From IMG/VR virus record IMGVR_UViG_2547132488_000023, positions 1 to 32,281 of that record: a DNA stretch of 32,281 nt; one strand, 5' to 3'. How positions within the stretch are numbered: the stretch's first letter is position 1; every line of letters starts with the position of its first letter. The position numbers were made by a program, and so were the translations under genes. This DNA comes from a virus (lineage: Duplodnaviria > Heunggongvirae > Uroviricota > Caudoviricetes). Below the pieces are notes generated by a model that saw only the letters and a list, made by a program, of their open reading frames with translations, searched no databases and was not told where the DNA came from. This document shows, one piece after another, positions 6,995-26,869 of the stretch.

Positions 6995-8050
6995 TTAATT
7001 TTTAAATATGGATTGTATGTATTCTATAGTGCTATCTTTAGCTCTGATGTCTTTTAAAGTGTTATTTATGAAATCTATTATTCTGTCATTACTTAATAGT
7101 GGCGATAACGCATAACATGTTGTTGTGAATGTCATGACGTCACTAAAGCTTAGTGAAACACCTTTTGTCGCAGCGTTCTCAATCGCAATAGACTCATCAA
7201 TATCTAAGTTTGTTGCTCTTGGCCCTTTAAGGAAGATAACTTTTGAAATCCCGGATGCAGATGCTTTTGAAACGGCGTGATTAACATCTTGATAATTAAA
7301 TGGTTTGTCTTTCACTTCTATAGAAAGGAAAACTATATCATCATGATATACATCTATGTCCAGTATCTCTTTTGAGGAGCTACCGGCCTGATTGACGGGA
7401 TGTGCTTTTATTATCCATCCTCTTTGTTCACCTAATAAGTGTAGCGAAATTGCGGCAGCAATCGCGCATGTTTCTCCATCACAAGGATGAGATATAATAT
7501 TATAAATAATCTTATGGAAATCAAAATTAATTGAGTTCGGCGTTATAACTCTATTGGTTCGCTGTAGGGTAAAATATAATGCAATAACAAGCATTTCATA
7601 AGCTAAGGTTTGGGTTGTTGCTGCATGTAATATATCAATTGAAAGTTGTTGTAAAACCTTATCATTTCCTCTGCGCACAGGGTTATCAGAGGAGTGGAGC
7701 ATGTAACGAGCTGGTTTATTTAGAAATGGCTCATTTGATGCGCCTAACTTACCCTCTAAAAATGGGCCTTCTACTTTGCCTACTATTACCGAATGACATA
7801 AACTTCTTGCATCATAGGCTCCGTCTACGGGGGCATTAGCTTGTAAAGCCAGAGGGTTTACTCTAGGGTCTGTTGCTTTTGCAAGTAAACCAGTAATAAG
7901 TATATATCTGTATGTAAGGTGGGTGCCTAAAATTACATTTTGAATGGAGACCCATTGATTATTTGTTTTGTAATCAGTTAATTTTTTTGCATCGTTGATT
8001 GCATTTATAATTACATTATAGGCTTGCTCATGATTTACTAATACTTTCAT
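6995..8050 (-). CDS. Putative type II restriction endonuclease (family not recognised) of an R-M cassette
   Basis: 351 aa; start overlaps the last codons of the upstream HTH controller gene; divergent from a C5-MTase; candidate PD-(D/E)xK-like segment ILDIDVYHDDIVFLSIEVKDK; markedly AT-rich. Confidence 0.5.
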   Translation of the reverse strand: MKVLVNHEQAYNVIINAINDAKKLTDYKTNNQWVSIQNVILGTHLTYRYILITGLLAKATDPRVNPLALQANAPVDGAYDARSLCHSVIVGKVEGPFLEGKLGASNEPFLNKPARYMLHSSDNPVRRGNDKVLQQLSIDILHAATTQTLAYEMLVIALYFTLQRTNRVITPNSINFDFHKIIYNIISHPCDGETCAIAAAISLHLLGEQRGWIIKAHPVNQAGSSSKEILDIDVYHDDIVFLSIEVKDKPFNYQDVNHAVSKASASGISKVIFLKGPRATNLDIDESIAIENAATKGVSLSFSDVMTFTTTCYALSPLLSNDRIIDFINNTLKDIRAKDSTIEYIQSIFKN

Positions 8051-8342
8051 AGGTGTCCTTTAGTAAGATATCCATTGGTAGACCTAATCGGCTTGCAACC
8101 ACCTCTAATAATTCAAATAGTTCTAAAGCATCTAATCGCCTTTCAAAGCTTTCGATTTTAGATATATCTGATTGTGATAATCCTAGAAAAATGGCCAATT
8201 CTGACTGCGAAAGAGAAGCTTCTTTGCGTAGTTTGGTGAGAAGCTGGACTAGGCACCTGTATCTATGATCATGTATAGTTGGTTGTCGTTTTGCCATGTG
8301 GTTTAGAAGGTGATTGATTGTGTGTCGATCCTTACCTATCAT
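8028..8342 (-). CDS. Controller (C-protein-like) XRE-family HTH regulator of the R-M cassette; possible alternative start at 8297 (89 aa)
   Basis: 104-aa ORF with HTH SLSQSELAIFLGLSQSDISKIESFERR; immediately upstream of and overlapping the putative endonuclease gene, divergent from the MTase, as in PvuII-type C-controlled systems. Confidence 0.65.
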   Translation of the reverse strand: MIGKDRHTINHLLNHMAKRQPTIHDHRYRCLVQLLTKLRKEASLSQSELAIFLGLSQSDISKIESFERRLDALELFELLEVVASRLGLPMDILLKDTYESISKS

Positions 8343-9511
8343 TGGTTTTATTCCAAAATCGAATAATTGGTGCTAAAGAAGTGAACAAAATTTCAGCGGT
8401 GAGCTTATTTACTGGGGCAGGAGGGATGGATGTCGGTTTCTCTAATGCCGGGTTCCGAACAGTTTGGGCCAATGATATAGATAAGGATGCATGTGATACA
8501 TTTAAGCTTAATCATGAATCACCTGTTTTTTGTGGTGATATTGATGAGATGCTAAGTGAATTGTCTGGGCTGAAAAATATAGGTTGTGTTTTTGGTGGGC
8601 CTCCATGCCAAGGATTTTCTGTGGCAGGGAAAATGGACGCTCATGATCCACGTAGTAAGCTGGTTATGTCATTCATGCGGGCGGTGGATATAATTCAACC
8701 AGAATGCTTTGTTATGGAGAATGTTAAGGCTTTAGCACAGTTGTCCAAATTTGAACCAGTTAGGTGTGAACTGTTTAAGATGGCTGAAAAGTCAGGCTAT
8801 CGTTCAGCCTTGCTGGTGCTGAATTCTAAAGATTTTGGCGTTCCTCAGAATAGGGAACGTATGTTTTTTATAGGGTTTCGTTCCGAAAATGATGTGAAAC
8901 AAGTTGAGGTGGCGATAAAAAAATACCAATATCTTTCGCCCACAGTTGGTGAGATTATTCGGCCTTTAGGGCGAGCGGGTAATCCAAACAATTCAAGAGT
9001 CTGTAATGCAAGGATTACAAATGCTGCTAAGCCAGTATTACGGAAGTCACCTTACGCGGGAATGATGTTTAACGGGCAGGGAAGACCAATTAACCCGAAT
9101 GGGTATGCTTCAACTATAGCTGCTTCTATGGGGGGGAATAGGACACCAATTATTGATGAAGAACACCTTTATGATGGCTCAACAAGTTATGTTGAGACTT
9201 ATCATAATCATCTAATGAATGGTGGTGAGCCAAAAGATATGCACGATGTACCTAGTCGTTTACGTCGACTAACGATAGATGAGGCTCTTTTGATTCAAAC
9301 ATTCCCGAGTAATTATGTCTTTGTGGGGAAAAATTCGTCAATTTGGCGTCAGATAGGGAATGCTGTGCCTTGTAAATTGGCGCAGGCTGTTGCTGCAGGG
9401 GTTTTGGATGTCCTTACTGGAAAAACTATTAATGTTCAAAAGAGTCAAACAGAGTTGAGTTTGAATTCGAAAAACGGATCACATTTTCAAACCGATGGAT
9501 GCAGAATTTAA
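8318..9511 (+). CDS. DNA (cytosine-5) methyltransferase (Dcm-like); true start may be the in-frame GTG near 8381
   Basis: Motif I FTGAGGMDVGF, motif IV GGPPCQGFSVAGK, motif VI ENVKAL, motif VIII QNRERMFFIGF, motif X GNAVP; variable region between VIII and IX. Confidence 0.9.
   Translation: MCVDPYLSLVLFQNRIIGAKEVNKISAVSLFTGAGGMDVGFSNAGFRTVWANDIDKDACDTFKLNHESPVFCGDIDEMLSELSGLKNIGCVFGGPPCQGFSVAGKMDAHDPRSKLVMSFMRAVDIIQPECFVMENVKALAQLSKFEPVRCELFKMAEKSGYRSALLVLNSKDFGVPQNRERMFFIGFRSENDVKQVEVAIKKYQYLSPTVGEIIRPLGRAGNPNNSRVCNARITNAAKPVLRKSPYAGMMFNGQGRPINPNGYASTIAASMGGNRTPIIDEEHLYDGSTSYVETYHNHLMNGGEPKDMHDVPSRLRRLTIDEALLIQTFPSNYVFVGKNSSIWRQIGNAVPCKLAQAVAAGVLDVLTGKTINVQKSQTELSLNSKNGSHFQTDGCRI
8343..8380. 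promoter_or_regulatory. Divergent control region of the R-M cassette with palindrome TTATTC-N7-GAATAA (8348-8366); candidate C-box/operator
   Basis: Perfect 6-bp inverted repeat with 7-bp spacer between the divergent C-R and M genes; tandem GATT repeats just upstream at about 8310-8325. Confidence 0.35.
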
Positions 9512-21489: not shown

Positions 21490-23676
21490 ATGAGCACAAA
21501 ATTCAGAACCGTTATCACCACTGCCGGTGCAGCAAAGCTGGCAGCGGCAACCGCGCCGGGAGGGCGGAAGGTCAACATTACCACGATGGCCGTCGGGGAT
21601 GGCGGTGGTAAATTGCCTGTCCCGGATGCCGGACAGACCGGGCTTATCCATGAAGTCTGGCGACATGCGCTGAACAAAATCAGCCAGGACAAACGAAACA
21701 GTAATTATATTATCGCAGAGCTGGTTATTCCGCCGGAGGTGGGCGGTTTCTGGATGCGTGAGCTTGGCCTGTACGATGATGCGGGAACATTAATTGCCGT
21801 GGCGAACATGGCCGAAAGTTATAAGCCAGCTCTTGCCGAAGGCTCAGGGCGTTCGCAGACCTGTCGCATGGTCATCATCGTCAGCAGTGTGGCCTCAGTG
21901 GAGCTGACCATTGACACCACAACGGTGATGGCGACGCAGGATTACGTTGATGACAAAATTGCAGAGCATGAACAGTCACGACGTCACCCGGACGCCTCGC
22001 TGACCGCAAAAGGTTTTACTCAGTTAAGCAATGCGACCAACAGCACGTCTGAAACACTGGCCGCAACGCCGAAAGCGGTAAAGACCGCCTATGACCTTGC
22101 TAACGGGAAATACACTGCACAGGACGCCACCACCGCGCGAAAAGGCCTTGTTCAGCTCAGTAGTGCGACTAACAGCACGTCTGAGACGCTCGCCGCAACG
22201 CCAAAAGCAGTAAAGACAGCATATGACCTTGCTAACGGGAAATACACTGCACAGGACGCCACCACAGCGCGAAAAGGGCTTGCTCAGCTCAGTAGCGCCA
22301 CCAACAGCGATTCTGAAACGCTGGCTGCAACACCAAAAGCGGTGAAGTCTGCCTATGACAATGCTGAAAAACGTCTTCAGAAAGATCAGAACGGTGCAGA
22401 TATTCCGGGAAAGGATACTTTCACGAAAAATATCGGTGCCTGTCGTGCTTATAGCGGCGCTTTGAGCACTGAAGCCGGAAACTGGACAACCGCTCAGTTT
22501 ATTGAATGGCTGGATTCCCGTGGTGCATTTAATCATCCGTACTGGATGTGCAAAGGCTCCTGGTCATATGCAAATAACAAAATCATTACGGATACCGGAT
22601 GTGGTGATATCCACCTGGCTGGTTGTGTCGTCGAGGTCATGGGAACAAAATCTGCAATCACTATCCGAGTGACCACGCCGACAACATCAAGCGGTGGCGG
22701 TACAACCAGTGCGCAATTCACTTACATTAATCATGGGGACGGCTACTCCCCCGGCTGGCGTCGTGACTGGAATCGTCAGGGCGACGCAATGACCGGAACG
22801 ATTAATCAGGATGGCGGAAGCCAGAATGCCTATATGTCTACGGCCTTATGTTCAGGCACCAGAGGCGGCAAAAAATATCTCAGAAAGTTTCGTGGTGGAG
22901 AAGGAGACACTATCTGGCATGAAACAGTACAGGGCGGGGTAGTTCGCTGGGCGACTGGTAATACTGATGCTCAGGAAGAATTATCACTCAGCTCCGCTTA
23001 TGGTCTCCGTTCAAGAGGTGAGATTACATCACTCAGTGCTAATGGTCTGCGCATTGCTTATGGCAATTATGGATTCTTTATCAGGAATGATGGCGGCAGC
23101 ACATATTTAATGCTGACGGCCTCTGGCGATAAATTTGGGACATGGAACGGTTTAAGGCCGCTGACTATCAATAACGCTAATGGCGGAGTGTCAATGGGGC
23201 ATGGCCTGAGTGTTACTGGTGATATTGCCTCAAGTACCAAAGTACGTGCCGGTAGCGGGAAAAAATTCACGGTCAGCAGCAGCAATACATCCACGAAGGA
23301 AGCCGCATTCAATTTGTGGGGAAACTCAAGTCGTCCGGTGGTGGCTGAGTTAGGTGATGATGCAGGCTGGCATTTTTACAGTCAGAGAAATACAGATAAC
23401 AGCATCACTTTTGCTGTTAACGGGCAGGTATCACCATCTAACTATGGCAACTTTGATTCACGCTATGTCCGGGATATCCGGCTTGGTGGTGCTGCCACAT
23501 ACAAACCTGCGAACAATGGTATGACATGGACACATCAGGCACCGTCCGGGTGTGTATATTCCGGCATTATTGTTCAGGATACCGGCTCAAACTCTGCCGA
23601 TAACATTGGTGGCGTATATTACAGACCGGTGCAGAAATACATTAACGGGACTTGGTATAACGTGGCGCAGGTATAA
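21490..23676 (+). CDS. H: Tail fiber protein H
   Basis: 728 aa; conserved N-terminal fiber domain, internal 44-aa tandem repeats, divergent C-terminal region; followed by tail fiber assembly gene. Confidence 0.88.
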   Translation: MSTKFRTVITTAGAAKLAAATAPGGRKVNITTMAVGDGGGKLPVPDAGQTGLIHEVWRHALNKISQDKRNSNYIIAELVIPPEVGGFWMRELGLYDDAGTLIAVANMAESYKPALAEGSGRSQTCRMVIIVSSVASVELTIDTTTVMATQDYVDDKIAEHEQSRRHPDASLTAKGFTQLSNATNSTSETLAATPKAVKTAYDLANGKYTAQDATTARKGLVQLSSATNSTSETLAATPKAVKTAYDLANGKYTAQDATTARKGLAQLSSATNSDSETLAATPKAVKSAYDNAEKRLQKDQNGADIPGKDTFTKNIGACRAYSGALSTEAGNWTTAQFIEWLDSRGAFNHPYWMCKGSWSYANNKIITDTGCGDIHLAGCVVEVMGTKSAITIRVTTPTTSSGGGTTSAQFTYINHGDGYSPGWRRDWNRQGDAMTGTINQDGGSQNAYMSTALCSGTRGGKKYLRKFRGGEGDTIWHETVQGGVVRWATGNTDAQEELSLSSAYGLRSRGEITSLSANGLRIAYGNYGFFIRNDGGSTYLMLTASGDKFGTWNGLRPLTINNANGGVSMGHGLSVTGDIASSTKVRAGSGKKFTVSSSNTSTKEAAFNLWGNSSRPVVAELGDDAGWHFYSQRNTDNSITFAVNGQVSPSNYGNFDSRYVRDIRLGGAATYKPANNGMTWTHQAPSGCVYSGIIVQDTGSNSADNIGGVYYRPVQKYINGTWYNVAQV
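22008..22365 (+). repeat. Tandem 132-bp (44-codon) repeats inside tail fiber gene H, about 2.7 copies
   Basis: Repeat units starting at 22008, 22141 and 22273; encoded peptide KG(F/L)xQLS(N/S)ATNS(T/D)SETLAATPKAVK(T/S)AYD(L/N)A. Confidence 0.85.
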
Positions 23677-23679
23677 TTT

Positions 23680-24207
23680 ATGCAGCATTTGATAAATATA
23701 ACGGCAGGTAATCCAAAAACGGTTGAACAATATCAATTGACAAAAGACTTTGATGTTGTCTGGTTTTTTTCAGAAGATGGTAAGAACTGGTACGAAGAAC
23801 AAAAGTATTTTGCTGATGACACGCTAAAAATAGCGTACGACAAAGATAATATCATCCGCTATGTGGAAAAGGATGTGACAGCTATCAGACCGGATGGATT
23901 AAGTGTTGTTGAAGTGGCGGATATTACTGCTAACCGACGGGCGGACATTTCAGGGAACTGGATGTTTAAGGACGGCAAAGTGATTAAACGCATTTATACG
24001 GCAGAGGAATTGCAGCAGCAGGCAGAAAACCGGAAAGCCAGACTTCTTGCAGATGCTGAATCCGTGATTTTGCCGCTGGATCGCGCTGTCAGACTGAACA
24101 TGGCAACAGATGAGGAGCGTAGCCGACTGGATGCATGGGAGCGTTACAGCGTTCTGGTCAGTCGTGTGGATCCTGCAAATCCTGAATGGCCGGAAATGCC
24201 GCAATAA
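23680..24207 (+). CDS. G: Tail fiber assembly chaperone G
   Basis: 175 aa immediately after H. Confidence 0.8.
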
Positions 24208-24242
24208 GTTGTATGAGCTCTGGTGTGAGCTTACATATCTAT

Positions 24243-24282
24243 GGCACAGAGTAAAGACTAATCTGACAGTCCGCTCTGTGCC
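24243..24282. terminator. Hairpin (GGCACAGAG / CTCTGTGCC, 22-nt loop) in the convergent gap after G
   Basis: 9-bp perfect inverted repeat 24243-24251 / 24274-24282; no clean U-tract, so terminator function is tentative. Confidence 0.3.
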
Positions 24283-24411
24283 AAAAACGGACATGTCAAA
24301 GCGCAGAGTGAATGGCTAAGTCTAGCTCATTAGAAATGTTCGCTTCATGAAAATGGCTGCAGCAAGGATCTATCTCACTGCGGCCTCTTTACAATAACGA
24401 AATTTTGCGAG

Positions 24412-25167
24412 CTATTCCTTGGCCTCTTTATTTTTCTCGCCATCGCCAATGTAAAGAAGATAATCGTTTAAGGATATCCTTCCGGAGGGGCCGGTCCATG
24501 TTATCCATCCGTTCTCACGAAGATTAAATAATGCTTCCATGAACTCATTATCGTTAAAAGAATGATCCTCTGAGAACAGAATGTTCATTTTTCTCAATAG
24601 TTCTTCCACTTTAATCTTTTCATATCGCCTTATCAGACTTAGTGCTTTACGACGCATTAAGATTGTAGGTACTGCTTGTGAACGAATGGTTTTTTGTATT
24701 CCACTATCAAGAACTTTTTTGATCTTACTCTCTAACTCTTTGATTTTAGTTTCATTATCTCCATTGGACTTAAGCTTTTCATCAACGATGCAAATAATTT
24801 CCTGACTAATGCTGTTCTTGAGGTTGTTTATTTTTTCTTCATTGTTGAGAATCTCATCAGAGCTTCCTGCATGGGGTTTTTTCCATATGTGCTGACGCAT
24901 ATCCGTTACCGTATCTCTCATCATAGAGAATGTATCTGAATATAACTTGTCAAATATTTTTTCCAGTCGTTCGACACTTGCCTGGATGTCTTTTGCTGCT
25001 TTAGTTGTCTCTTTAGAAGCCTCATTCGACATTTTATAAAAAACAAAAGAAAGCCAAATAGCCCCAATGGCGAGTACTAATGAGGCTATTGTGGCAATAA
25101 AACCTATTATTGTTATTGCTGTATCTAATGTACCTGCTGCATCTGTGACTACTGTTTCTGCTGCCAT
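24412..25167 (-). CDS. Membrane-anchored protein of unknown function in the Z/fun-equivalent accessory slot
   Basis: 251 aa; GAGG 5-6 nt upstream of ATG; N-terminal TM helix TAITIIGFIATIASLVLAIGAIWLSFVFY; lysine/glutamate-rich helical middle; C-terminal region with aromatic GWITWTGP motif; AT-rich; antisense to late genes. Confidence 0.7.
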   Translation of the reverse strand: MAAETVVTDAAGTLDTAITIIGFIATIASLVLAIGAIWLSFVFYKMSNEASKETTKAAKDIQASVERLEKIFDKLYSDTFSMMRDTVTDMRQHIWKKPHAGSSDEILNNEEKINNLKNSISQEIICIVDEKLKSNGDNETKIKELESKIKKVLDSGIQKTIRSQAVPTILMRRKALSLIRRYEKIKVEELLRKMNILFSEDHSFNDNEFMEALFNLRENGWITWTGPSGRISLNDYLLYIGDGEKNKEAKE

Positions 25168-25600
25168 ATATCCTCAATATTTAACCATACAGGGTAGCGT
25201 GTTTTAACCGCGGGGAAGTCGGGGTGGTGACACCCTAGCCTTACCCCGATTCCAGAGTATTTATTTATCATACCATTGAAACTATTTAATTTTATCGAAA
25301 ATTTTGTCAGAGCGTGACTGAAAAGTCTTCAGCACGTCAAGCATATCGTCGCCGTTCAATTAACACTGAGCCTTTTCTTAGAGGGGTGGGCTGCGCAGTT
25401 GCGAGGTTATGCCCCAGTTCCTGGTTCCTCACTACATTCTAATTAAGCCGGCCAACTAAATGTCCGCTTTTCGCTCAAAGCAGACTGTCAGATTTGATAG
25501 CGTTTGGGCTAGGTAAATTGTCAGTTGAAAAATGAGTGAGTACAAATCAGGACGGGTGGGCGAGTTGCCCGCCTTTTCTTTAATCTGTTGTTTCATCCAC

Positions 25601-25615
25601 TGACCAGTCAGGTCA
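25601..25615 (+). promoter_or_regulatory. Dyad TGACC-N5-GGTCA upstream of FI; candidate Ogr-dependent late promoter (PF) activator site
   Basis: Perfect 5-bp inverted repeat centred about 71 bp upstream of the FI ATG, consistent with an activator site near -55 of a late promoter. Confidence 0.4.
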
Positions 25616-25678
25616 AATAGCGTCTTATGCACTGCCCAACAGAAAATAGTTGCACCCATTAACCTCGGAGTTAAACGG

Positions 25679-26869
25679 ATGAGTGACTATCATCACGGCG
25701 TGCAGGTGCTGGAGATTAACGACGGCACCCGCGTCATTTCCACCGTATCCACTGCCATTGTCGGCATGGTCTGCACGGCCAGCGATGCGGATGCGGAAAC
25801 CTTCCCCCTCAATAAACCGGTGCTGATTACCAATGTGCAGAGCGCAATTGCAAAGGCCGGTAAAAAAGGCACGCTGGCGGCATCGTTGCAGGCTATCGCC
25901 GACCAGTCAAAACCGGTCACCGTTGTCGTGCGTGTGGAAGACGGCACCGGCGACGACGAGGAAACGAAACTCGCGCAGACCGTTTCCAATATCATCGGCA
26001 CCACCGACGAAAACGGCCAGTACACCGGACTGAAAGCCCTGCTGGCGGCGGAGTCGGTAACCGGTGTTAAACCGCGTATTCTCGGCGTGCCGGGACTGGA
26101 CACCAAAGAGGTGGCTGTTGCACTGGCATCAGTCTGTCAGAAGCTGCGCGCTTTCGGGTATATCAGCGCATGGGGCTGTAAAACCATTTCCGAGGTGAAA
26201 GCCTACCGCCAGAATTTCAGCCAGCGTGAGCTGATGGTCATCTGGCCGGATTTCCTCGCATGGGATACGGTCAGCAGCACCACCGCCACCGCGTATGCCA
26301 CCGCCCGTGCGCTGGGGCTGCGTGCTAAAATCGACCAGGAGCAGGGCTGGCATAAAACGCTGTCCAACGTCGGGGTAAACGGTGTTACCGGCATCAGCGC
26401 ATCTGTATTCTGGGATTTGCAGGAGTCCGGCACCGATGCTGACCTGCTGAACGAGGCAGGCGTCACAACGCTGATTCGCCGCGACGGTTTCCGCTTCTGG
26501 GGTAACCGTACCTGCTCTGATGACCCGCTGTTCCTCTTTGAAAACTACACCCGCACCGCGCAGGTGATGGCCGACACGATGGCTGAGGCGCACATGTGGG
26601 CGGTGGACAAGCCCATCACCGCAACGCTGATTCGCGACATCGTTGACGGCATCAATGCCAAATTCCGTGAGCTGAAAACAAACGGCTATATCGTGGATGC
26701 GACCTGCTGGTTCAGCGAAGAATCCAACGATGCGGAAACCCTCAAGGCCGGAAAACTGTATATCGACTACGACTATACACCGGTGCCTCCTCTTGAAAAC
26801 CTGACCCTGCGCCAGCGTATTACCGATAAATACCTGGCAAATCTGGTCACCTCGGTTAACAGCAATTAA
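25679..26869 (+). CDS. FI: Tail sheath protein FI
   Basis: 396 aa, matches P2 FI size; followed by tube gene. Confidence 0.9.
   Translation: MSDYHHGVQVLEINDGTRVISTVSTAIVGMVCTASDADAETFPLNKPVLITNVQSAIAKAGKKGTLAASLQAIADQSKPVTVVVRVEDGTGDDEETKLAQTVSNIIGTTDENGQYTGLKALLAAESVTGVKPRILGVPGLDTKEVAVALASVCQKLRAFGYISAWGCKTISEVKAYRQNFSQRELMVIWPDFLAWDTVSSTTATAYATARALGLRAKIDQEQGWHKTLSNVGVNGVTGISASVFWDLQESGTDADLLNEAGVTTLIRRDGFRFWGNRTCSDDPLFLFENYTRTAQVMADTMAEAHMWAVDKPITATLIRDIVDGINAKFRELKTNGYIVDATCWFSEESNDAETLKAGKLYIDYDYTPVPPLENLTLRQRITDKYLANLVTSVNSN

Follow-up and report, generated by a model that had tools for sequence, protein, structure and literature searches.

A two-part non-coding interval beside the tail sheath gene of a P2-like phage and the palindromes at the edges of its cargo cassette

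What occupies half a kilobase of DNA without a convincing gene in the late region of a P2-like phage? This question is raised by a 32,281-nucleotide (nt) stretch of a P2-like (Peduovirus) genome (IMG/VR record IMGVR_UViG_2547132488_000023, positions 1 to 32,281; hereafter the window), whose large open reading frames (ORFs) fit the P2 gene order. The interval in question (25168-25678, 511 nt) runs from the start of a minus-strand ORF of 251 amino acids (aa; 24412-25167), here called the cargo gene, to the ATG of the tail sheath gene FI (25679-26869, plus strand, Phage_sheath match), which is followed by FII, E, T, U, D and ogr. On the other side of the cargo gene lie the tail-fibre assembly gene G (23680-24207, plus strand, Caudo_TAP match) and, upstream of it, the tail fibre gene H (21490-23676, plus strand). 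Domain matches and synteny with P2-like phages confirm this placement between G and FI, a locus that carries Z/fun in P2 and is recognised as a second hotspot for defence genes in phages of this type (Rousset et al. 2022, PMC9122126; Vassallo et al. 2022, bioRxiv 10.1101/2022.05.12.491691). The original prediction for this interval, that it lacks a convincing ORF, was borne out: it holds short ORFs only and no conserved gene. Its further claim of an unusual length was not: in eight other P2-like phages, cargo ORF and FI lie 319, 320, 321, 329, 329, 408, 423 and 597 nt apart. The gap is thus ordinary for the G/FI spot of P2-like phages and calls for no new biology.

The principal result is that the 511 nt comprise two non-coding units, one linked to the cargo and the other belonging to the P2 backbone, joined at a recombination boundary; we place the probability of this reading at about 0.8. 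In BLAST searches against phages, the whole interval was matched only in the records of phages P22H4 and 9W (96.5%), which carry the same cargo, and positions 25168-25458 were confined to these two. The other 70 P2-like phage records match only about 25460-25678 (from 25458/63), at 89-96% identity. We then aligned eight P2-like G/FI junctions with different cargos (HNH, Shedu, S1 peptidase, lysogenic-conversion protein, helix-turn-helix (HTH)+acetyltransferase, P2-EC31 ORF1 and P2DC1). Right-side conservation opens exactly at a palindrome (GTCCGCT..., 25462), here termed R, and extends to the FI ATG; left-side conservation runs from the stop codon of G to the end of a second palindrome, termed L (...GCGGAC, 24292). 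Hence, the right 217 nt align end to end with ordinary P2 intergenic sequence, an outcome that the original prediction had itself named as refuting it and that applies to this half, and the left 294 nt are cargo-linked. This bears on the earlier suggestion that the gap might be a remnant of the recombination that delivered the cargo: the cargo/backbone junction does lie inside the palindrome at 25462-25485, but the left 294 nt are no debris, being a predicted promoter and leader, both intact and co-inherited with the gene. The cargo also bears the marks of foreign DNA, as the G+C content (GC) of the cassette is 0.393 and that of the gene itself 0.369, against 0.518 for the window, and the cargo differs between otherwise near-identical phages.

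The palindromes at the two boundaries are versions of a single 9-6-9 motif, GTCCGCTTT-N6-AAAGCGGAC. L, the left cassette boundary (24269-24292, GTCCGCTCTGTGCCAAAAACGGAC), has 9-nt arms around the 6-nt loop GTGCCA; R, at which the cassette ends on the right and the P2 backbone begins (25462-25485, GTCCGCTTTTCGCTCAAAGCAGAC), has the loop TCGCTC, nearly a mirror image of the loop of L. Nothing else in the window matches the 9-6-9 motif, shuffles giving 0.18 matches at a looser threshold. Around them, 24260-24294 and 25460-25494 make up a 35-nt inverted repeat with 86% complementarity. On the left, the P2 backbone downstream of G forms the left inverted repeat of the Z/fun hotspot (24208-24294); on the right, the repeat continues beyond R through 25486-25552, with TGTCAG at 25486-25491 and again at 25519-25524, and this remainder is kept in 27 unique P2-type sequences. 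Both blocks are annotated as left and right inverted repeats in GenBank record AJ512677 (the P2-EC31 Z-region); a 'Right inverted repeat' is annotated in AJ512677, AJ512683 and AJ512685, and window positions 25462-25552 are 96% identical to it.

A strong alternative helix, GGCACAGAG/CTCTGTGCC, occurs just after G on the plus strand (24242-24282; folding free energy (dG) -23.1, z -4.75). It overlaps the L palindrome, so that the two structures are mutually exclusive. A weaker mirror version of this helix lies to the right of R, and the lambdoid left flank described below retains the helix by way of G.U pairs.

The same boundaries recur in other replicons. Positions 24269-25486 are 99.1% identical in a lambdoid prophage of pig Escherichia coli strains, where the cassette lies between a DUF977 gene and hokD, and the homology with this copy begins at the L palindrome and stops at 25485/6. 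Distant copies of the cassette are found in Citrobacter (89%), in a Hafnia P2-like phage between S and V (83%), in Serratia (80%) and in metagenomic sequences, one of them beside TraI; the gene is accompanied in them by about 310 nt of upstream and about 120 nt of downstream sequence, and the homology stops inside both palindromes. The lambdoid DUF977-hokD locus is also a hotspot, with different cargos between the same L and R; the HTH+acetyltransferase pair of this locus, for instance, is 97% identical in a P2 G/FI locus. Position 8 of the L arm is C in the P2 backbone and T in the lambdoid one. Position 21 of R is A in P2 and G in lambdoid phages, and it follows the backbone in all five of the shared cargos compared. 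The outer arms thus carry the bases specific to the backbone (in L, CTC or CTT; in R, GCAGAC or GCGGAC) and the inner arms those specific to the cargo, which places the switch within about 10 nt around the loop.

The cargos of the DUF977-hokD interval (lambdoid, Rac/Qin-like) include an alpha/beta hydrolase, QueH, the HTH+acetyltransferase pair and hypothetical proteins, and this hotspot has at least five cassettes in common with the P2 G/FI hotspot. At two lambdoid QueH loci we observed an L-like palindrome with another loop (GCATCA or GCGTCA) and no recognisable R; these may represent further loop types or degraded sites.

A wider survey points in the same direction. The R palindrome is present in at least 119 loci in IMG/VR, with P2-like, lambdoid and many other flanks, several of them adjoining umuDC or SRAP genes of prophages. 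When one genome was scanned for each species, R was recovered in 115 loci from more than 100 species, spread broadly over Enterobacterales and reaching Idiomarina, Alkalimonas and Rheinheimera; L-type palindromes were found near R in the order L...R, and arrays are present. The R sites collected number at least 272, with at least 198 different cargo ends, at least 12 of which stand beside flanks of more than one kind. The 76 P2-type loci carry 34 different cargos, and 5 of 42 right-flank haplotypes are common to several cargos, one of them to as many as four. No cargo-less site was found in IMG/VR with P2 and lambdoid flanks as queries, which argues for exchange rather than insertion. Taken together, the comparisons suggest that the G/FI boundary palindromes mark the edges of swappable cassettes in many unrelated prophages, and that cassettes have probably been exchanged between unrelated phages at junctions inside these palindromes.

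Arrays of two or more L...R cassettes were seen in Pseudescherichia, Pantoea, Trabulsiella and lambdoid prophages. In some of them R is followed by L within about 15-40 nt, a layout resembling that of integrons; no integrase is evident, though a dedicated integrase search was not made.

The cargo-linked half of the gap (25168-25461) reads on the minus strand, away from FI. Next to the gene lies a predicted 5' untranslated region (25168-25260), its start being deduced, with the ribosome-binding site (RBS) GAGGA at 25171-25175, invariant in nine homologues, and a GGGTG/CACCC hairpin at 25222-25235. This hairpin had been noted before and exists, but 7 nt further left than the 25229-25242 first given; in Citrobacter it shows a compensatory change from GGGTG/CACCC to GGCTG/CAGCC. 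Beyond the leader comes the putative promoter block (25262-25366, minus strand), with a candidate extended -10 element, TGGTATGAT, at 25267-25275, an A/T-rich upstream part and a strongly conserved block of about 100 nt; it is kept in nine homologous cassettes, down to 69% protein identity. Across cassettes of this range, the 100-nt block is more conserved than third codon positions. The outermost part is a less conserved distal spacer (25367-25461, minus strand), with 7-8-nt indels between homologues and an identity about equal to that of third codon positions; it is absent from P2-like phages with other cargos. At the other end of the gene, a predicted intrinsic terminator (24347-24385, minus strand) folds into a hairpin at 24355-24385 followed by a U-tract at 24347-24354, and the region is conserved in homologous cassettes. 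It is therefore likely that the segment from the L palindrome (24269-24292) to the R palindrome (25462-25485) is a self-contained moron, which would read on the minus strand, in order, as distal spacer, promoter block with extended -10, leader of about 90 nt with its hairpin, strong RBS, cargo gene and own terminator. A promoter, gene and terminator of its own between phage operons agree with the definition of a moron, the promoter and terminator being predictions that are conserved with the gene.

Within the 100-nt block, the minus-strand segment 25300-25366 upstream of the predicted -10 contains a repeated motif, ACG(N)nCTGA. We also considered a pseudogene remnant in 25300-25460; the 7-8-nt indels and the near-neutral divergence argue against a coding past, and this candidate was set aside.

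The backbone half (25462-25678, 217 nt) has a near-constant length in the 27 unique P2-type sequences. After the repeat comes a plus-strand hairpin with the stem GGTGGGC (25555-25561)/GCCCGCC (25567-25573) and the T-run TTTTCTTT at 25574-25581. The GGGC-gagtt-GCCC hairpin and T-run of the first description are thus real, and the stem is longer than was then seen. The RNA folds with a dG of -18.2 kcal/mol (z -3.3), none of 200 shuffles folding as well, and the structure is present in all P2-like phages aligned. With its G+C-rich stem-loop directly followed by a U-tract, 25555-25581 has the make-up of an intrinsic terminator. An insulating role between the cargo promoter and the late promoter had been proposed for it: it does stand between them, but it faces right and so would not shield the minus-strand cargo promoter from the late promoter. 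Rather, its direction indicates shielding of the FI operon from upstream plus-strand transcription: in the lysogen, it would prevent transcripts begun in the G operon, or in plus-strand cargos, from running on into the tail operon.

Downstream of the terminator, 25589-25606 (plus strand) holds an Ogr-type activator site of the form TGT-N12-CCA, one mismatch away from TGT-N12-ACA. In P2, four late promoters depend on Ogr and share the consensus TGT-N12-ACA; one of them, PF, drives FI-FII-E-T-U-D (PMC3931495). The Ogr/Delta-type PF of P2 (Christie & Calendar 1985; Julien & Calendar 1995, cited in PMC3931495) resembles the window site in its place upstream of FI, its TGT-N12-ACA-like element and the accompanying ogr gene, which the window also has, and differs in the CCA ending. 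The same TGT-N12-CCA form is found upstream of O and a TGT-N12-ACC form upstream of V; the exact consensus is absent from every late promoter of the window, all of them being one-mismatch versions. The element is near-invariant in the 27 unique P2-type sequences. Its position upstream of the first gene of a late operon suggests that it belongs to an Ogr-activated PF, whose transcription start was placed by the -55 rule alone. The putative PF core, short leader and FI RBS (25642-25678, plus strand), with an A/T-rich -10-like element, GAAAATAGT, at 25642-25650 and GGAG at 25667-25670, are invariant among P2-like phages.

How might such cassettes be exchanged? The mechanism that we prefer, if tentatively and at a little below even odds, is a homology-driven double crossover within L and R, taken as "linkers" that are short, palindromic and conserved. 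The homologous recombination would be that of the phage or of the host, and would take place between co-resident or co-infecting phages. A crossover over short homology agrees with three observations: the searches turned up no empty sites, the contexts have no evident recombinase in common, and the P2 and lambdoid sites show weak homology in their outer flanks.

Several observations weigh against this account of the cassette and its boundaries. Three features suggest recognition by a protein more than they do passive homology, namely the palindromic 9-6-9 geometry, the restriction to two loop types across more than 100 species, and the junctions with unrelated flanks, as in Citrobacter, at which just the inner arm and the loop survive. 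The outer arms have decayed where the cassette sits outside the hotspots, with gene and promoter still conserved; cargo expression thus does not depend on the palindrome, and the present account gives no reason for its upkeep in the hotspots. As for the cargo-linked half, the extended -10 was picked by eye, and a consensus scan gave a different, weak site at 25310-25281. The account also gives no role to the conserved block of about 100 nt, which may be an operator. Finally, the cargo promoter, the start of PF and the use of the terminator are all predictions drawn from sequence.

The strongest competitor is a dedicated site-specific or single-strand hairpin-specific system of cassette exchange, for which L and R would serve as attachment (att)-like recognition sites, recombining L with L and R with R in the manner of recombinase-mediated cassette exchange. 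A putative enzyme of phage or host origin would bind to the inverted 9-nt arms and make the crossover in the 6-nt loop; it would carry promoter-bearing cargo, often defence genes, among P2-like G/FI, lambdoid DUF977/hokD and umuDC-adjacent loci, and would also reach plasmids, across Enterobacterales and some Alteromonadales, much like an integron without a linked integrase. The fixed geometry, with GTGCCA and TCGCTC as the only loops in the 115 loci from more than 100 species, speaks for such an enzyme, as do the junctions that always fall inside the palindromes, unrelated flanks included, the arrays with R-spacer-L joints and the right-flank haplotype shared by up to four cargos. The title of Nilsson et al. 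2004, at least, likewise invokes site-specific recombination. On the opposite side, the P2-like, lambdoid, plasmid and other contexts examined have no recombinase in common, and neither an empty site nor an excised form was found in IMG/VR with the P2 and lambdoid flanks. Moreover, L and R differ in their loops, which does not agree with the simple integration of a circular cassette. The crossover can be placed by informative single-nucleotide polymorphisms (SNPs) to about 10 nt at best, a resolution at which recombination over short homology fits equally. We consider such a dedicated system unlikely, if the best of the alternatives.

The remaining, fainter odds attach to the proposal that the palindromes are primarily functional RNA or DNA elements, such as mRNA stabilisers of the repetitive extragenic palindromic (REP) kind, insulators or binding sites of regulators, with recombination as a by-product. 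Both fold well as minus-strand RNA (R, -14.2, z -3.7; L, -17.4, z -4.7) and both stand at the ends of transcription units. However, neither has a U-tract, the strand asymmetry due to G.U pairs is inconsistent across the family, the outer arms decay outside the hotspots while gene and promoter stay conserved, and some P2 cargos wholly lack the inner arm. All this makes the proposal improbable. The better folding of both palindromes on the minus strand by way of G.U pairs had also raised the idea of a single-stranded substrate; this was rejected, the asymmetry being mirror-symmetric about the cassette and partly a matter of clonal backbone SNPs.

A small regulatory RNA or a structured cis-regulatory leader, which the original prediction had raised for the gap, fares worse still. 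The region does contain several hairpins, the block upstream of the cargo promoter is conserved over about 100 nt beyond neutral expectation, and a 4-bp helix, ACUG/CAGU, shows compensatory variants in three homologues. However, an Rfam scan over 23600-26200 gave no match within 25168-25678 at E<=10. We also ran RNAalifold on both strands of the cargo-linked upstream region, with four and then seven homologues, and it yielded no net support from covariation: the covariation term, for which positive values are unfavourable, was +1.0 to +1.6 on the cargo-strand alignments (+1.59 with seven sequences) and -0.44 on the opposite strand. A long inverted repeat, GCATATCTTCGC/GCGACGATATGC, seen with four sequences, breaks without compensation in the distant homologues. 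In addition, no promoter-terminator pair brackets the candidate, and the distal part carries 7-8-nt indels. The small RNA was thus not borne out, and we regard either form of this explanation as quite improbable.

The weakest alternative, a real small gene of 67 aa overlapping PF (25456-25659, minus strand, covering nearly the whole backbone half), can be dismissed as very nearly without prospect, since its frame is lost in 24 of the 27 unique P2-type sequences, with further 1-nt and 4-nt indels. The ORF exists as first described, an ATG with a Shine-Dalgarno-like GAGG 3 nt upstream, and the doubt then voiced about it was right. As had been said, the GAGG is the reverse complement of sequence at the FI RBS, namely of CCTC at 25663-25666, which abuts the GGAG of FI at 25667-25670. 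Most other P2-like phages have CCAC (GTGG) in place of CCTC, and the motif is thus not conserved. In those 24 sequences the ORF is 38-49 aa long instead, and its C-terminus is unrelated. The cause is a 1-nt indel, as the window and P2-EC31 have an additional A at 25581. In the 25 N-terminal codons that are shared, one synonymous variant stands against ten non-synonymous ones, no better than in the other two frames, and hence there is no synonymous excess. The ORF matches phrog_11095 (E 8e-49) and is annotated as a coding sequence in phage 9W and others; the phrog_11095 match merely mirrors earlier automatic annotation, and the conservation of the DNA beneath the ORF is already accounted for by PF, the terminator and the inverted repeat. 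We judge the ORF non-coding and recommend removing the "hypothetical protein" of 67 aa from the annotation of the several phages that list it.

The architecture that emerges, with the inverted repeats of the P2 Z-region, PF, a terminator and a moron, is a known one, and the window adds one cassette to the class. By their sequence records, the Z-region (Z/fun) inserts flanked by inverted repeats in coliphages of the P2 type (Nilsson, Karlsson & Haggard-Ljungquist 2004, Mol Biol Evol 21:1; AJ512677, AJ512683, AJ512685) have the same G-FI locus, the same repeats and a foreign low-GC cargo with its own promoter; the cassette described here differs from them in that its cargo is a 251-aa membrane protein. 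Of the two papers on the P2 defence hotspots, neither describes boundary repeats; Rousset et al. (PMC9122126) call the exchange mechanism unknown and speculate on cos ends for the other hotspot. Searches of full-text literature for palindrome- or hairpin-bounded prophage cassettes gave nothing relevant, Nilsson et al. 2004 and Odegrip et al. 2006 lying outside their coverage. The feature worth pursuing is therefore the palindromic cassette boundary at the centre of the gap, rather than the gap itself. It narrows the probable exchange points of the hotspot to two 24-nt palindromes common to P2-like, lambdoid and many other contexts; given the very high rate of gene exchange at P2 hotspots, whose mechanism is still called unknown in published work, the palindromes make the question testable. 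The motif can also serve as a simple sequence marker in searches for prophage cassettes with cargo or defence genes.

Comparison with other mobile or modular elements sharpens this picture. Morons of lambdoid phages, reportedly described by Juhala and colleagues in 2000 in J Mol Biol, are likewise single non-essential low-GC genes with their own promoter and terminator, placed between phage operons and probably expressed from the prophage. A conserved pair of boundary palindromes common to unrelated phages, by contrast, is not known to be a defining feature of classical morons. 'Linker' or 'boundary' sequences are said to have been proposed for modular phage evolution by Susskind and Botstein in 1978 and by Clark and colleagues in 2001. 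Like L and R, such linkers are short conserved sequences that separate phage modules open to exchange. The REP units and bacterial interspersed mosaic elements (BIMEs) of Enterobacteria are likewise intergenic palindromes, short and of two types that alternate in orientation, and serve as junctions for recombination. In contrast to REP and BIME units, the palindromes described here are unrelated in sequence to the REP consensus, are tied to prophage cargo cassettes rather than chromosomal operons, and have no REP-associated tyrosine transposase (RAYT) implicated in them, although no search aimed at transposases was made. To mobile elements of the insertion sequence type IS200/IS605 or of the REP/RAYT type, whose subterminal hairpins are recognised by a Y1 HUH transposase with defined cleavage tetranucleotides, the likeness is limited to the hairpins at both ends.

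Integron cassettes with their attC sites also resemble this system: cassettes with or without promoters, imperfect palindromes, arrays and unrelated replicons. However, attC sites span 57-141 nt, with R''/L''/L'/R' boxes and a GTTRRRY core, whereas the palindromes here are 24 nt long and neither boundary has GTTRRRY. Also unlike integrons, there are two alternating types of site, one per cassette end, and no empty sites were found. We rejected an attC identity on the grounds of the 24-nt size and the missing GTTRRRY; no integron integrase was evident nearby, although no search aimed at integrases was made.

The cargo protein of 251 aa combines a transmembrane helix at its N-terminus with long helices and, at its C-terminus, a winged-helix-like domain that is weakly detected. 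It matches phrog_36054 and belongs to a large uncharacterised family, of which we found 351 homologues. Profile searches against Pfam, PADLOC and PDB gave just weak winged-helix matches, and the AlphaFold model is of low confidence, with a predicted local distance difference test score (pLDDT) of 66.5 and a predicted template modelling score (pTM) of 0.31. Members of the family were observed in the P2 G/FI hotspot, in the lambdoid DUF977/hokD hotspot and between S and V in the Hafnia P2-like phage. Further members lie beside umuDC/SRAP/dinI or hipBA, between the terminase and portal genes in Serratia, within an inovirus-like contig, and close to TraI on a contig that resembles a plasmid.

Two further observations concern other parts of the window. 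Outside H, the only exact matches to TGT-N12-ACA are at 8722 and 9002. They fall within 6995-9511, a segment between the replication genes and the Q/P packaging genes, with ORFs of 351 aa (minus strand), 104 aa (minus strand) and 397 aa (plus strand), whose position is that of the other P2 hotspot (old/tin). The H protein (21490-23676, plus strand), in turn, contains three tandem copies of a unit of about 44 aa (...ATNSTSETLAATPKAVKTAYDLANGKYTAQDATTARKGL...) at residues ~175-300.

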